NCBI RefSeq assembly: GCF_030384885.1
Contig: NZ_CP128613.1
Strand: one strand, 5' to 3'
Source of the DNA: Escherichia coli
GTDB lineage: Bacteria > Pseudomonadota > Gammaproteobacteria > Enterobacterales > Enterobacteriaceae
DNA: 64,000 nucleotides
In this document: positions 44,880 to 50,800 of the stretch, piece after piece
Layout: each line of letters opens with the position of its first letter
How positions within the stretch are numbered: position 1 is the first letter of the stretch
Program-made: the position numbers

Positions 44880-47800
44880 TAAGTAAGGTGGTAAGGTCAC
44901 TCCCCAGGGGGCGTGACCTTATCCATATTTACGCCGGGATTTTGTCAATCTTAGGAATGCGTGACCACACGCGGTGTGCTGCCATCAGCGTTAACAGTTC
45001 ATCCATAAAACTACCATCGGCGCTATCGGCTTCTACAATACCTTCTTCACCCTGATCATCAACTTTGATTGTCGCCTTAAACTTGCGCGCGTCTCCTGCC
45101 AGTGCAATCGGTTTGAGGTGTTTGTAGGCTTCCATCAGGTAGTAGTTGGCATCGCCGTTGTCAGCGATGTCCGCGATATTGCCGCAAGGGACAATGACCG
45201 CATCGACCGTCAGCGAAGGCGCTCCGGCAAAGGTAGCGGCTATAGGCAGCACAGTACCGTCATCCGCAGTCACTTCACCCATTCGAGAGTAGAGTAGTTT
45301 GGCATGAACGCCTTTGGCCTTCAGCGCCTTGAGAATGGCCAGAAGGTCTGCCGATCTCACTTCATCATTAAGCAAAATCGCTACCACGCGACCTTTCACA
45401 TCACCGTCAGGAATGGCGTACAGACTTAAGGATGGATCCTTTTTCAGACCGTTGACGTCCGGAGGCGGAGTGATATTCAGCTGGTCGTCAGTCAGTTCGA
45501 TACCGAGATTTTTCGCCACTGCCTGGGCCAGAGTGAGATCAATATGCGCCAGTTGGTCTACAACGCGCTCACGAATATAAGGGCGTACAACTTTGCTTAA
45601 CTCAAAACTGAAACCATCGACAATATGCCGCTGCTCGAACGGCGTCTGACTTAACCAGAACAGGCGCGGATGAGAATAATATTCGCCAAATGACGGGCTA
45701 CGTTCGCGCACTTTATTGCCTTCCACGCGCTCCTGATATGACTCAAATCCGCCACGTTTTGGCCCTGGTGGTGTTTCGCGCGGCCAGTTATCGTTGATCG
45801 AGTTGGGTTCGTAATTCGCCGGGTTAGTGTCGATACCCATGCGGTGCATGCCATCACGCTGGAAGTTGTGGTATGGGCAGGTCGGGCGGTTAATCGGAAT
45901 TTCATGGAAATTGGGTCCGCCAAGACGACTGATTTGTGTATCGGTATAGGAGAACAAACGTCCCTGTAACAGGGGATCGTTGGTGAAGTCCAGACCTGGA
46001 ACAATATGACCTGGATGGAAAGCTGCTTGTTCGTTTTCGGCAAAGAAGTTATCCGGATTACGATTGAGCACCATTTTGCCGACACGCTGAACGGGCACCA
46101 GTTCTTCCGGGATAAGTTTAGTTGGATCAAGAAGGTCGAAGTCGAACTTAAATTCATCTTCTTCAGGAATCAACTGGAAGCCCAGTTCGTATTCCGGGAA
46201 ATCACCTGCTTCAATCGCTTCCCACAACTCGCGGCGGTGGAAGTCCGGGTCACGTCCGGTTAGTTTTTGTGCTTCATCCCAAACGAGCGAGGCTTTACCT
46301 GCCAGTGGTTTCCAGTGGAAACGAACGAACGTCGCTTTACCTTCGGCGTTAATCAGACGGAAGGTATGAATACCAAAGCCTTCCATAGTGCGGTAACTGC
46401 GCGGGATCCCGCGATCCGACATCGCCCACATCACGTTGTGCAGAGTTTCAGGTTGCAGAGAAACATAATCCCAGAAAGTATCGTGAGCACTTTGCCCTTG
46501 CGGAATTGCCCAATGCGGTTCTGGTTTTACCGCATGGACAAAATCAGGGAATTTATGCGCATCCTGAATAAAGAAGATCGGTGTGTTGTTACCAACAAGG
46601 TCAAAAATACCCTCTTCAGTGTAGAACTTGGTCGCGAAGCCACGGATATCTCGCACCGTATCCGCCGAGCCAGCACCACCCTGAACGGTAGAGAAACGTA
46701 CAAATACTGGGGTGATTTTGTTCGGATCTGAGAGGAAATCCGCTTTGGTGATATCGCTTAAGCTTTTATATGGCTGGAAATAACCGTGAGCGGCTGATCC
46801 GCGCGCATGAACAATTCGTTCCGGGATGCGCTCATGGTCAAAGTGAGTGATTTTCTCGCGCAGAATAAAATCTTCCAGCAGTGTTGGGCCACGGCTACCG
46901 GCGCGTAGGGAGTTTTGATCATCGGCGATGCGTACACCCTGGTTGGTGGTAAGTGCATAATTTTCACTACCTTTGCGTACGTCTTCCAGAGAATTAAGTT
47001 TTTCGTTACGCGTATCAGGGGCTTTCAGGCTCCCTGGGGCGGTAGGTTGTGCACCTGGCGGTGTTGGTTCAGCCGCTGGACGATGAGATCCGTCCTCAGG
47101 TGCCAGTGAGTCCATCCCCGGTTTCGCTTCGCTGGAATCGTGTAGTGGTGACTGGTGCTGATGTGGGTTCTTTTCGTTATGTTGCGACATTGAACTCGTC
47201 TCCTTAATGTATTACTGAAAGGGCCGCTGTTTTGGTCAAAAAACTCTCTAACTATAGACCACCAGCCAGATCCCGCTTCGGAGACTATTCTGGAAACGGT
47301 GTTATGAAATACACGCAAAGCGGGACGTACAGGGGCTAAATCGGCTAAACTACAGTTTTTCTGATTTTTAATATGCGTTTAGTGAAGCCAGTAATGAAGA
47401 AACCGCTCCGTCAGCAAAACCGCCAGATTATTAGCTATGTCCCACGCACGGAACCCGCGCCGCCAGAACATGCGATAAAGATGGATTCGTTTCGTGATGT
47501 CTGGATGCTGCGTGGCAAATATGTTGCGTTTGTACTGATGGGAGAGTCATTTCTGCGCTCACCGGCGTTTACTGTGCCTGAATCCGCCCAGCGTTGGGTA
47601 AATCAGATCCGCCAGGAAGGGGAAGTGACTGAGTAAGGATTACGTACCTCCCGGTTTTGCCGGGAGTTACATGGCCTGAAATTTTGTATTTCATTGCTAC
47701 ATTCATTCAAACCACCTGTAACAAAAAGCTGCCTTTGACGATCTATTGCTATAAATAAGTGATCTTTTTTCTTTAATTGTTTATTTATTTTAAAATGGTT

Positions 47801-50800
47801 AAGTTTTGCTAATCATGATGAGCTATTTTTGATAGTTCATCCTGTGGCGTCGCTCTTAAACTTATATTGTAAATGACTTAGATTTAAATGAGATAATAAT
47901 TTTGTTAACAATATGAGGCGGGAGATGTTTTCTACAAACTTAATACAGAGTAATTATGGTGATTTAAATATTAAAAGCCTGGCTTTCGACTCTTTTAAAG
48001 AAAGGCTGCAGTCTACTATGACAGCACTCACTTTCTTTATATCAACGGGGCAATGTGACTGCGATGAAATAGCAGAATCAAACTTTAATTATATGATTGC
48101 CTATATGTCTAACATTAACTATGATGCCTCAAAGCCAGGAGCGCCAGCACTTAGTTTTGATACATATCTGCAGGACAATGTTAAATATAGAGTAATAATT
48201 AATAATCTTTATGGTAGTGAAATTCGGATAAGAGGTATAAATAAAGATTTTATTGGAATGGATGTCGCTTCTGTATTTCGCCCAGAAAAGATGACCAATT
48301 TGATCAATATAAAAAACAGGTTGGTTATTCACTATTTAAGGACTATATACTATGAACAAAATTATATACATCCTGCCGGGAGTATTTTTTCTGCAATTCA
48401 AAAAAATGAGAGTCTCCTAAAGTTTCCTTCGGTAATATCAATGCTTAATGTCAATCTTCTTTTTAATCCACTGAATCTTCCGGGAATGGGAAGTGGTGTG
48501 CTTGAAGAGATTATGAGTATTTCAGATAGTTCACTTAGAAAACGTCTTGGGTATGAGGTTTTAAGCTTCTCGCTACAAGCACATTCATTGAGTCAGGAAT
48601 GTATTGATAAGTTAGCCATTTTTTTCGCTGACGATCTGTTTAAATATGAGTCAGTATGCATCGCCGCGATGGAACATTTAAAAAGTAAGGCAACGGCCCC
48701 TATACAAAACGGACCGTTGCCAGCATAAGAATTAACGGTGTGCCAGTTCGGCGTCGTCTTCGCTATCCAGAATGGCTTTATCGGTTTGCTTCAGCCACTG
48801 GCTGGTCAGCGTGCCAGCGGTCATCGAGCCACTAACGTTTAGCGCCGTACGGCCCATGTCGATAAGCGGTTCAACGGAGATTAACAATGCCACCAGCGTT
48901 ACAGGCAGGCCCATCGCAGGCAGCACAATCAGTGCGGCGAAAGTTGCGCCACCACCGACACCGGCAACGCCTGCGGAACTAACGGTAACAATACCGACCA
49001 GCGTCGCAATCCACATCGGGTCCAGCGGGTTAATGCCAACCGTAGGCGCAACCATCACCGCCAGCATTGCCGGATACAAACCGGCACAGCCGTTCTGACC
49101 AATGGTCGCACCGAAAGAGGCGGCGAAACTGGCGATGGATTCAGGAACACCGAGTCGACGCGTTTGTGCTTCCACATTAAGCGGGATAGACGCAGCACTG
49201 GAACGGCTGGTAAAGGCAAACGTCAGTACTGGCCATACCTTACGGAAGTACTTCAGCGGGCTCACGCCATTAATGCCCAGCAGAAGGCCATGCACTGCAA
49301 ACATAATCAGAAGACCGAGGTAGGACGCGACAACGAAACTACCCAGTTTGATGATGTCTTGCAGGTTAGAACCTGCAACCACTTTGGTCATCAGCGCCAG
49401 AACGCCGTAAGGGGTCAGCTGCATGACCAGGCGAACCAGTTTCATCACCCAGCTTTGCAGGGTATCGATAGCGGTTAAGACGCGTTCACCTTTCGGCGCA
49501 TCATCCTTCAGCAGCTTCAGCGCAGCTACGCCGAGGAATGCGGCAAAAATTACCACGCTGATAATTGACGTCGGATTGGCTCCGGTCAGATCGGCAAACG
49601 GGTTTTTCGGGATAAAGGACAAGACCAGCTGCGGAACGCTCAGGTCAGAGACTTTACCAACATAGTTACTTTCGATGGCGTTCAAACGTGCAGTTTCTGC
49701 ACCACCCTGAACCAGACCTTCAGCCGTCAAACCAAACAGGTTGGTGACCAGCACACCGACCAGCGCCGCAATCAGCGTGGTAAACAAAAGCGTTCCGATG
49801 GTCAGAAAACTGATTTTGCCTAACTGTGATGCGTTATGCAGACGGGCAACCGCGCTCAAAATAGAGGCGAAGACTAACGGCATAACGATCATTTGCAGCA
49901 GTTGAACATAGCCATTACCAACGATGTTAAACCACTGTACAGAATCTTTAAGTACCTGGCTGTCAGAACCATAAATGGTATGCAGGGCGAGGCCAAAAAC
50001 CACACCCATCACCAGACCCACCAGCACTTTTTTCGCCAGACTCCACTGTTTATGGCGGGTCTGAGCCAGCGCAAACAGCAGTACAACGAACACCACGATG
50101 TTCGCAATTAATGGAAAGTTCATCCCCGTTCTCCTGATCTTATTATTTCTATCACTGCGTAGCAGTCATAGTGTTGGCGCAAGATTAACAGAACTGTGAG
50201 CTGGCTCTTATATTCAAATGGAATTGCTTATTCCAGAAAGGCGATTTTTGCCTTTTTAGTATTCAACCTGATGCTTAATAAGCCGATGAAACTGGATCTG
50301 CAAGGTATTGATCATTTGCGATGACCAACGAACAGCGCTGTTTTCGGGTAATGAATGGGGCATCCATACCGACCAGACAAATAATGCCATGCAGATAAAA
50401 CGTTCCAGTTGGTTGCCCTTTTGGGGAACCAGGATAGGCAAGCGGAAACGCCAGCGGCATGGCCAGAGCAGGGGAACACCGGCGGGTGTCAGCATATCGG
50501 CAAGTATGTGGCTCAAATAACCCAGCACCATGCCCTGCAATGCATCAGCCGGAATGAACCAGCTTTCAGGAACCTTAAGGTAAAAGGTTGCCAGCAGCGC
50601 AAATACCGCCAGCAGACTGTGGGTAAAACCACGATGCCCAAAAGCGCGGGCGATCGGTTTTGATATCCACTTTAATCGCTGCCCAAGAAACGACTTTGGG
50701 TGATCGATGTCCGGTAACAAACACGTCAGGATTGCGGAAGGGACAATATGCCACCAGTCACCCTGTGCCAGCACGGGCGTCAGCTCGGCATTTTTGGCAA

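Follow-up and report, generated by a model that had tools for sequence, protein, structure and literature searches.

The 64,000-nt stretch of E. coli DNA that we analysed (the window) carries, between the convergent genes cedA and tcyP, a single annotated gene, ydjO, whose features are collected in Table 1. Its RefSeq start at 47925 follows a Shine-Dalgarno sequence, GAGG, at 47915-47918, and an in-frame ATG at 47913, upstream of that start, is not conserved, reading CTG in the P0004-type allele. With the RefSeq start, the upstream spacer measures 288 bp, close to the roughly 280 bp that the first-pass annotation had described as AT-rich, which it is. At the other end the stop codons of ydjO and tcyP stand 3 nt apart, and the terminator-like hairpin of tcyP, with a U-rich tail at 48675-48688, sits within the final ~15 codons of ydjO. 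The hairpin directly past the cedA stop occupies the same place as the ancestral terminator described below, and the 21-nt block in the spacer is a possible regulatory site. The ORF list also holds a 67-aa antisense ORF at 48129-48332. We found no tRNA or tmRNA gene in 44000-52000 (ARAGORN), no integrase or transposase in the island (ORF list, annotation), no credible RNA family in 47000-49200 (Rfam), and no direct or inverted repeats at the ends of the island, the sole notable repeat in the repeat scan being internal.

Table 1. Features of the cedA-ydjO-tcyP locus, with positions in the window
Feature	Position	Strand	Evidence
cedA, conserved left flank, 87-aa ORF	47373..47636	+	Pfam CedA E = 5.7e-45; NCBIfam equivalog E = 2.1e-55; GC 0.515
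Last five codons and stop of cedA (..GEVTE*), likely left recombination junction	47619..47636	+	differ between island-bearing and island-free genomes
Stable hairpin directly past the cedA stop, core stem 47648-47666, without U-run	47636..47677	+	RNA fold -20.7 kcal/mol, z = -3.2
cedA-ydjO spacer, AT-rich, GC ~0.31	47637..47924	.	composition; matches the H-NS-bound 'promoter island' published for K-12
12-nt direct repeat TGACGATCT(A/G)TT, left copy	47736..47747	+	repeat family D6
21-nt block GATGAGCTATTTTTGATAGTT	47818..47838	+	same letters upstream of the E. albertii homologue; read directly, MAFFT having put the copies out of register
Predicted sigma-70-type promoter of ydjO, ATGACT-16-AATAAT	47873..47900	+	consensus scan, 9/12 matches; hexamers agree with PMC3946193
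ydjO, intact 267-aa orphan ORF	47925..48728	+	RefSeq annotation of a 99.9% identical strain
12-nt direct repeat TGACGATCT(A/G)TT, right copy	48629..48640	+	repeat scan; deletion endpoint in L006
tcyP terminator-like hairpin	48689..48721	-	RNA fold -22.4 kcal/mol, z = -4.1; lower part also found by terminator scan
tcyP, conserved right flank	48732..50123	-	ORF list, RefSeq annotation; 89-100% protein identity over 55 loci

The strong AT-richness that the first-pass annotation had seen in ydjO and the DNA upstream was borne out. The 1092-bp stretch 47637-48728 has a GC content of 0.344, against 0.496 for the whole window, and marks the lowest stretch of that length: only 0.13% of all 1092-bp segments are as low, the minimum starts at 47645 and overlaps the island, and the runner-up that does not overlap it reaches 0.376. 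Within it GC is 0.312 in the spacer 47637-47912, 0.355 in the ORF counted from 47913 and 0.327 in the core 47690-48650; the drop takes place within ~100 bp past the cedA stop, and GC rises again across the final ~80 bp of ydjO. The contrast drawn earlier with katE (GC 0.511) and tcyP (0.532) is real for composition, whereas katE does not adjoin ydjO, since cedA (0.515), which had been skipped, lies between them. Nor do GC and codon usage fall within the normal range of the flanking genes: among the 48 window ORFs of at least 150 aa, ydjO ranks last in GC (z = -3.6), in GC3 (0.316, the mean being 0.525; z = -3.6) and in codon adaptation index (CAI 0.155, z = -2.1), the last computed with Sharp & Li weights and backed by a relative index derived from the window itself (0.595, z = -3.2). 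The long A/T runs held up in part. Homopolymer runs of at least 5 nt are no more frequent than composition predicts (9 seen, the longest of 7 nt, against 5.6 +/- 2.2 in shuffles; P = 0.10), whereas mixed A/T-only tracts of at least 8 nt are enriched (16.5/kb vs 3.9/kb), as are TpA steps (95/kb vs 49/kb). High A+T, many mixed tracts and many TpA steps together would make the island a substrate for H-NS.

A comparison with the same site elsewhere gives the direction of change. cedA and tcyP are convergent in 46 loci from other genera, none of which has a match to ydjO; the spacer between them is 53-115 bp in 39 of the 46, and in six it is longer (148-911 bp), at normal GC (0.43-0.54). The short outgroup spacers contain a bidirectional terminator (A-run, hairpin, T-run). 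Four Escherichia lineages other than E. coli have a short spacer too, and among 5426 complete E. coli genomes 1124 show the empty-site junction and 4265 (~79%) the island. The ~21% of complete genomes from which ydjO is wholly absent include ST131, Nissle 1917, S88, E2348/69 and the type strain; every recognised strain among the island-free E. coli we take, from strain names and not from typing, to be B2, and the lineages without the island thus appear to be phylogroup B2. The empty spacers of B2 E. coli, E. whittamii and the loci L009-L011 are homologous to one another and resemble the Citrobacter spacer. The end of cedA follows the same division: it reads QEGEV(T/A)E in island carriers and in E. 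albertii, QENEVEE in B2 E. coli, E. whittamii, L009 and L011, and QENEIEE in L010. In the rest of cedA the window and the B2 strain E2348/69 are 99.15% identical, so that the tail alone co-varies with the island. Since outgroups have a short terminator spacer and ydjO-free E. coli a homologous one, the island is an insertion or replacement; and since it stands in place of the ancestral spacer and comes with altered last codons of cedA, these comparisons show the polarity to be that of insertion, not of deletion in B2.

That the island was ancestral to Escherichia and was lost by deletion in B2 and other lineages is extremely unlikely, even if two facts accord with it: the early-branching species E. 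albertii has a homologue in this very position, and Escherichia sp. MOD1-EC7003 (L006) carries a true deletion remnant. This deletion of ~890 bp lies exactly between the two copies of the 12-nt repeat, a microhomology remnant that shows a later loss of the island. The empty sites, however, are unlike deletion scars, for their terminator spacer and cedA tail are homologous to those of other Escherichia and similar to those of Citrobacter and Enterobacter. Loss of DNA could not restore such a spacer and tail, which largely refutes ancestral presence, and the empty record of all 46 non-Escherichia loci speaks against it too. The suggestion that the DNA was horizontally acquired thus gains support from the outgroup and B2 empty site with its homologous spacer, together with the outlying composition and codon usage.

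Homologues of YdjO were found in Escherichia only, in protein collections of 5.8 billion and 1.84 billion entries, and the protein had no match in Pfam, NCBIfam, PHROG, PADLOC, PDB or phages; a tblastn search for a phage donor gave zero matches. The most divergent form is that of E. albertii, at the same site after cedA (39% identity, E = 6e-22), in an island with GC 0.32. The protein search recovered only a 79-aa fragment of it; with a 655-bp metagenome contig, which is frameshifted, the comparison reaches residue 169 and gives 34% identity over 148 residues (E = 2e-26), and an exact DNA pattern for the full-length allele found nothing in metagenome contigs. Several candidate relatives were set aside. 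P0033, the single apparent distant homologue (27% identity, E = 1.8e-36), was rejected as an A<->G base-swap artefact of sequencing or base calling: its contig reproduces the E. coli locus except that A and G are systematically exchanged (548 A>G, 412 G>A, vs ~50 other changes). Three 'plasmid' matches to ydjO are in reality 4.8-4.9-Mb chromosomes mislabelled as plasmids. YjfZ and YahL (DUF2686), compared on account of their like length and common 'signature protein' status, were rejected as paralogues (BLASTP E = 2.2 and E = 53).

With no donor, no phage or plasmid copy, and no tRNA, integrase or flanking repeats, the case for a horizontal origin is made by phyletic pattern and composition. 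It could be considered that ydjO is home-grown, born or expanded locally, and that it became AT-rich through AT-biased mutation while under weak selection and little expressed; the lack of homologues outside the genus and of any mobility signature would suit such an origin, as would weak selection and frequent decay. We nevertheless hold it to be very unlikely. There is no intermediate, none of the outgroup spacers having ydjO-like sequence and most being 50-110 bp, against 1.09 kb for the island; the gene is already full-sized and AT-rich both in E. coli and in E. albertii, whose forms are 34-39% identical (GC ~0.32-0.34); the GC boundaries are sharp; and a dN/dS well under 1 indicates an established coding frame.

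ydjO is diverse and often broken. Its nucleotide diversity (pi 0.072) is 4-9x that of four of the five flanking genes (0.008-0.018), and its dN/dS of 0.15-0.33, against 0.00-0.06 in tcyP, ydjM, hxpB and katE, suggests weak purifying selection. Half of the alleles (4/8) are broken, with recurrent pseudogenes and IS1 insertions, and the gene would be dispensable because it has been inactivated repeatedly. The alleles fall into divergent types: K-12-like, a type 80% identical to it (dS 0.66 in the N-terminal half), and the E. albertii type at 34-39%. One could speculate, as a decidedly unlikely possibility, that ydjO is a polymorphic locus whose ancient, deeply divergent alleles stay in a single chromosomal position owing to recombination through cedA and tcyP, with a variable N-terminal alpha/beta domain under diversifying or balancing selection and H-NS holding the gene in reserve; such N-terminal diversification would be akin to that of phage-defence, immunity or host-interaction proteins.

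H-NS is known to silence AT-rich, horizontally acquired DNA (the literature of Navarre, Lucchini and Oshima), and the first-pass annotation had regarded the locus as typical of such DNA. Published H-NS data concern K-12, to whose island the one studied here is ~98% identical. There the ydjO/cedA region is one of 78 promoter islands (PMC3661553, Table 1, entry 1811053_320), with H-NS found in the Kahramanoglou and Oshima datasets (code K, not A) and absent from Grainger's ChIP-chip; both Nakamura et al. and Lawrence et al. predicted the gene linked to it to be foreign. Genomic SELEX places an H-NS site in the same spacer (PMC3946193, Table 2). Binding by H-NS is thus recorded for K-12 in two ChIP datasets and by genomic SELEX, but not in Grainger's data. 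The island shows no enrichment of the 10-bp high-affinity H-NS motif TCGATAAATT, with 2 of the 98 matches in the window. The RpoD holoenzyme also gives a SELEX peak in the spacer, that is, polymerase binding in vitro, and the same ATGACT/AATAAT hexamers make up the ydjO 'constitutive promoter' reported from RpoD genomic SELEX (PMC3946193). Our simple sigma-70 consensus scan detected a single site within the spacer; over 1.8 kb it gave 4, no excess over the 4.1 expected from composition-matched shuffles. By the published data the K-12 spacer is bound by H-NS in vivo and in vitro, and by sigma-70 RNA polymerase at ATGACT-16-AATAAT, and this published binding of both points to a likely competent promoter that is probably mostly off under an H-NS filament. 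In searchable literature texts we found no record of ydjO expression in hns mutants.

The gene may not always be silent: an ExPEC transcriptome study (PMC4145685) lists both ydjO and tcyP (ydjN) as responding to serum. Together with the binding of the spacer by RNA polymerase holoenzyme alone in vitro (PMC3946193) and with purifying selection on the frame, this response would be compatible with an ordinary regulated gene, expressed on need from its sigma-70 promoter, on whose AT-rich DNA H-NS binding is incidental. We think this unlikely, since the CAI of 0.155 speaks against strong expression, recurrent pseudogenes and IS1 insertions suggest that the gene is rarely needed, and antisense read-through from the convergent tcyP could account for the ExPEC array signal; promoter islands as a class, according to PMC3661553, also give very low transcript output despite polymerase binding.

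The reading that we favour, and consider highly probable, is that a foreign AT-rich islet was inserted between cedA and tcyP, was spread or kept by recombination, and is bound and presumably mostly silenced by H-NS. The islet, a single-gene unit of 1.09 kb made up of ydjO and its 288-bp promoter region and of probably foreign origin, would have entered an Escherichia lineage between these convergent core genes, replacing an ancestral bidirectional terminator spacer of ~50 bp and rewriting the final five cedA codons. It may then have spread, or been retained, through homologous recombination in the flanking genes, and its genus-restricted product would be encoded by a gene under purifying selection yet dispensable.

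The islet shares features with several known systems. Like other targets of xenogeneic silencing by H-NS it has an AT content ~15 points over its surroundings, a restricted phyletic range, the status of an insertion relative to outgroups, and published occupancy, although it is very small (one gene) and has no virulence or mobility function. The E. coli ORFans of the Daubin & Ochman type are A+T-rich, fast-evolving and often degraded, and ydjO resembles them in all three respects and in having no homologues outside the genus, but it is fairly long (267 aa), and its allelic lineages, all at one site, diverge deeply (80% and 34-39% identity). Classical genomic and pathogenicity islands are likewise compositionally distinct inserts, polymorphic in presence among strains, but they span tens of kb and not 1.1 kb, and the islet has no tRNA target, integrase, direct-repeat boundaries or cargo operon. 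As for promoter islands (Panyukov & Ozoline 2013, PMC3661553), the K-12 counterpart of 47637-47924 is itself listed as one and is H-NS-bound; the dense start points, predicted across 300 bp or more, that mark such islands are a property of the PlatProm algorithm, and our simpler consensus scan gives one sigma-70 site in the spacer here.

The locus is real but already known, in line with earlier published accounts of H-NS-bound foreign DNA, and it leaves the present view of H-NS and of genomic islands as it was. A practical consequence concerns ydjO as a universal PCR marker of E. coli/Shigella, as has been proposed (PMC11057252): the gene is missing altogether from some 21% of the complete genomes of E. 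coli, and others have broken copies. The islet is a clean, small, textbook AT-rich insertion with its intact 'before' state in B2 strains and sister species, and it could serve as a natural system for the handling by H-NS of a single foreign gene between convergent core genes.

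The AT-richness of ydjO and of the roughly 280 bp upstream of it, which the first-pass annotation had reported, was confirmed: this island has a GC of 0.344, compared with 0.496 for the window overall, and is the lowest-GC 1092-bp stretch of the 64 kb (next non-overlapping stretch, 0.376). GC falls less than about 100 bp past the cedA stop and rises again across the final ~80 bp of ydjO. Among the 48 window ORFs of at least 150 aa, with z computed against the other ORFs, ydjO is at the bottom on all four measures, namely GC (0.355, z = -3.6), GC3 (0.316, z = -3.6), CAI (0.155, z = -2.1; Sharp-Li weights) and relative CAI (0.595, z = -3.2; weights derived from the window's own genes), so neither its GC nor its codon usage is in the normal range. 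The long A/T runs that had been pointed out are no more than this composition predicts (9 homopolymer runs, the longest of 7 nt, versus 5.6 +/- 2.2 in shuffles); the density of mixed A/T tracts and of TpA steps is 2-4 times that of the whole window. The gene order is chbF-chbG-katE-cedA-ydjO-tcyP-ydjM-hxpB, in the reverse orientation of K-12, and the segment's closest match is strain 2013C-4282 (99.9% identity). Of the two genes earlier named as neighbours, tcyP is indeed adjacent, convergent with ydjO and with stop codons 3 nt apart, and on the left it is cedA, rather than katE, that lies next to ydjO. After the island, the window's most AT-rich feature is a 632-aa ORF adjoining a thrS-like ORF, at a position that is presumably that of arpB.

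Features of the ydjO locus and of other AT-rich or divergent parts of the window (pi and dN/dS within E. coli)
Feature	Position	Strand	GC	pi	dN/dS	Remarks
Island	47637-48728					first base past cedA stop to ydjO stop
Island core	47690-48650		0.327
cedA-ydjO spacer	47637-47924			0.057	not applicable
ydjO	47925-48728	+		0.072	0.15-0.33	whole gene
ydjO, N-terminal 160 codons				0.098	0.12-0.31
cedA	47373-47636	+	0.515	0.008	0.10-0.29	1-2 changes only
tcyP	48732-50123	-	0.532
tcyP, ydjM, hxpB				0.011-0.018	0.00-0.06
katE	44929-47190		0.511	0.033	0.00-0.01
chbG-katE spacer	44883-44928
Hairpin after cedA stop	47636-47677					stable; -20.7 kcal/mol (RNA fold)
Repeat copies	47736-47747, 48629-48640					TGACGATCT(A/G)TT
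Block shared with E. albertii	47818-47838					21 nt, GATGAGCTATTTTTGATAGTT
Promoter match	47873-47900					ATGACT-16-AATAAT
tcyP terminator-like hairpin, U-rich tail	48689-48721	-				-22.4 kcal/mol (RNA fold); within last ~15 ydjO codons
632-aa ORF	56055-57953	-	0.394			GC3 0.367, CAI 0.20
thrS-like ORF	58474-60402
Second-lowest GC stretch	55793-56884		0.376
Third-lowest GC stretch	57400-58491		0.380

A CedA scan with one genome per species gave 52 loci, 46 of them from other genera (Citrobacter, Salmonella, Enterobacter, Kluyvera, Atlantibacter and others), where cedA and tcyP are convergent, one locus having no tcyP match. The gap between the two genes is 53-115 bp in 39 of the 46, another six have gaps of 148-911 bp (GC 0.43-0.54), no ydjO-like sequence was found in these 46 loci, and the short spacers that were read carry an A-run/hairpin/T-run bidirectional terminator. 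The gap is 51-53 bp in E. whittamii and in three other Escherichia lineages (L009, L010, L011). Among 5426 complete E. coli genomes the flanks were matched in 5424, the island in only 4265, and a junction of cedA and tcyP without the island, the empty site, in 1124, carried among others by E2348/69, Nissle 1917, S88, UM146, ST131 strains and ATCC 11775 (the type strain), each regarded here as phylogroup B2. The spacer at the E. coli empty site, AAAAACACCTGTCGGGATGACAGGCGTTTAACG.., is an evident homologue of the one in the other Escherichia species, and the Citrobacter spacer is similar. Since a deletion would be unable to recreate this spacer, the ancestral allele is the empty one, and the island is an insertion or replacement relative to the ancestral cedA-tcyP arrangement. 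Moreover, the last five cedA codons co-vary with the island (..QEGEVTE in carriers; ..QENEVEE at empty sites, ..QENEIEE in L010) and elsewhere in cedA the window and B2 share 99.15% identity, which places the left junction inside the cedA tail. We found no tRNA around the island, no integrase or transposase ORF within it, no direct or inverted repeats flanking it and no phage matches to ydjO; 'plasmid' matches to ydjO were rejected, all being mislabelled chromosomes. The position of the left junction suggests that the island arrived or spread via homologous recombination, its source being a relative already holding cedA-ydjO.

YdjO (267 aa, its start preceded by a GAGG Shine-Dalgarno) had no match in Pfam, NCBIfam, PHROG, PADLOC or PDB, and its relatives in collections of 5.8 billion and 1.84 billion proteins are from Escherichia only. 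A '27% identical homologue' (P0033) was rejected as an artefact of A<->G-swapped reads, its source being a Logan contig (SRR33321306) in which cedA, ydjO and tcyP show a systematic swap of A and G (548 A>G, 412 G>A); YahL and YjfZ were also rejected, as they have no similarity to YdjO. The AlphaFold2 model is of moderate confidence (mean pLDDT 60.5), with an N-terminal helix, five-stranded sheet and helix (pLDDT about 78) and a helical, poorly defined C-terminal half, and fold comparison gave no convincing match. E. albertii NBRC 107761 has a ydjO homologue directly 3' of cedA (39% identity over 114 residues, E = 6e-22, truncated by the contig end), and in a metagenome contig of E. albertii type the match reaches residue 169 (34% identity, E = 2e-26), this contig being frameshifted. 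The E. albertii island equals that of the window in AT-richness (GC about 0.32) and shares with it an identical 21-nt block upstream of ydjO. In NBRC 107761 (positions 1-4000; flank GC 0.459) there is no katE match upstream of cedA, so its left-hand neighbourhood differs.

Diversity within E. coli is far greater in the island than in most of its flanks. One divergent allele, of the P0004 type, has only 80% protein identity next to neighbours that are 99-100% identical, with dS of 0.66 in its N-terminal half. This divergence and the dN/dS of the whole gene indicate that the ydjO frame has been under real but relaxed purifying selection, with old allelic lineages. The window katE is itself highly divergent from all other E. 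coli in the comparison (types A, B1, B2 and E; dS 0.25-0.33, 5-7% nucleotide difference, dN/dS about 0.01), cedA and tcyP being 97-99% identical to the same strains, and has the appearance of DNA imported by recombination from a divergent lineage. The chbG-katE spacer is ~210 bp longer in K-12 BW25113 and EC6563 than in the window and the other strains, with chbG ending at locus position 472 in these two, against 683 elsewhere, and katE at an equal position in all.

The K-12 island differs from that of the window by 1.4% over the spacer and by 2.2% over ydjO, so K-12 data on H-NS and promoters should transfer. A consensus scan placed a promoter 24 nt 5' of the ydjO start codon, and the RpoD-holoenzyme SELEX promoter of Shimada et al. 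uses identical hexamers (PMC3946193), the same authors assigning an H-NS SELEX site to the cedA-ydjO spacer (PMC3946193). Panyukov and Ozoline list this spacer (K-12 1811053, 320 bp) among 78 'promoter islands', linked to a gene that Nakamura et al. and Lawrence et al. predicted to be foreign, and bound by H-NS in the Kahramanoglou and Oshima datasets and not in Grainger's (PMC3661553); as a class, such islands bind polymerase yet yield little full-length RNA (PMC3661553). The literature searched gave no direct measure of ydjO expression in an hns mutant. The earlier reading of horizontally acquired DNA of the H-NS-silenced type is supported by the insertion relative to the ancestral site, the foreign composition and the published H-NS binding. 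The palindrome near the ydjO stop encodes the YdjO C-terminal tail (residues 255-267, pLDDT <50, poorly modelled). It has no U-run 3' of it on the ydjO strand, so a predicted ydjO transcript would read antisense into tcyP and, by our own reasoning, silencing of ydjO could shield tcyP expression.

The island has also been lost or broken. In Escherichia sp. MOD1-EC7003 ~890 bp are deleted with both island ends kept, the endpoints being exactly the two repeat copies. IS1 lies within ydjO in several E. coli strains (the matches H2 and H14 among them), and E. coli ES4 has a pair of IS1 copies flanking a deletion or rearrangement, with everything lost from the 3' part of chbF up to and including most of ydjO. 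IS1 seems to target the AT-rich island.

At its core this picture has been published before, and our additions are modest: the ancestral empty site preserved in island-less E. coli, the junction within the cedA tail, a divergent allele in E. albertii, the frequency with which ydjO decays and a clash with its proposed use as a marker. ydjO has been put forward as a 'conserved signature' qPCR marker present in all E. coli/Shigella (PMC11057252), with a detection rate of 93% versus 100% for YahL (PMC11057252). In further E. coli genomes ydjO is present and frameshifted or IS1-disrupted, and the 93% fits absent or broken copies. Universal use of ydjO as a marker conflicts with the 1124 of 5426 complete genomes without the gene, ST131, Nissle 1917, S88, E2348/69 and ATCC 11775 included.
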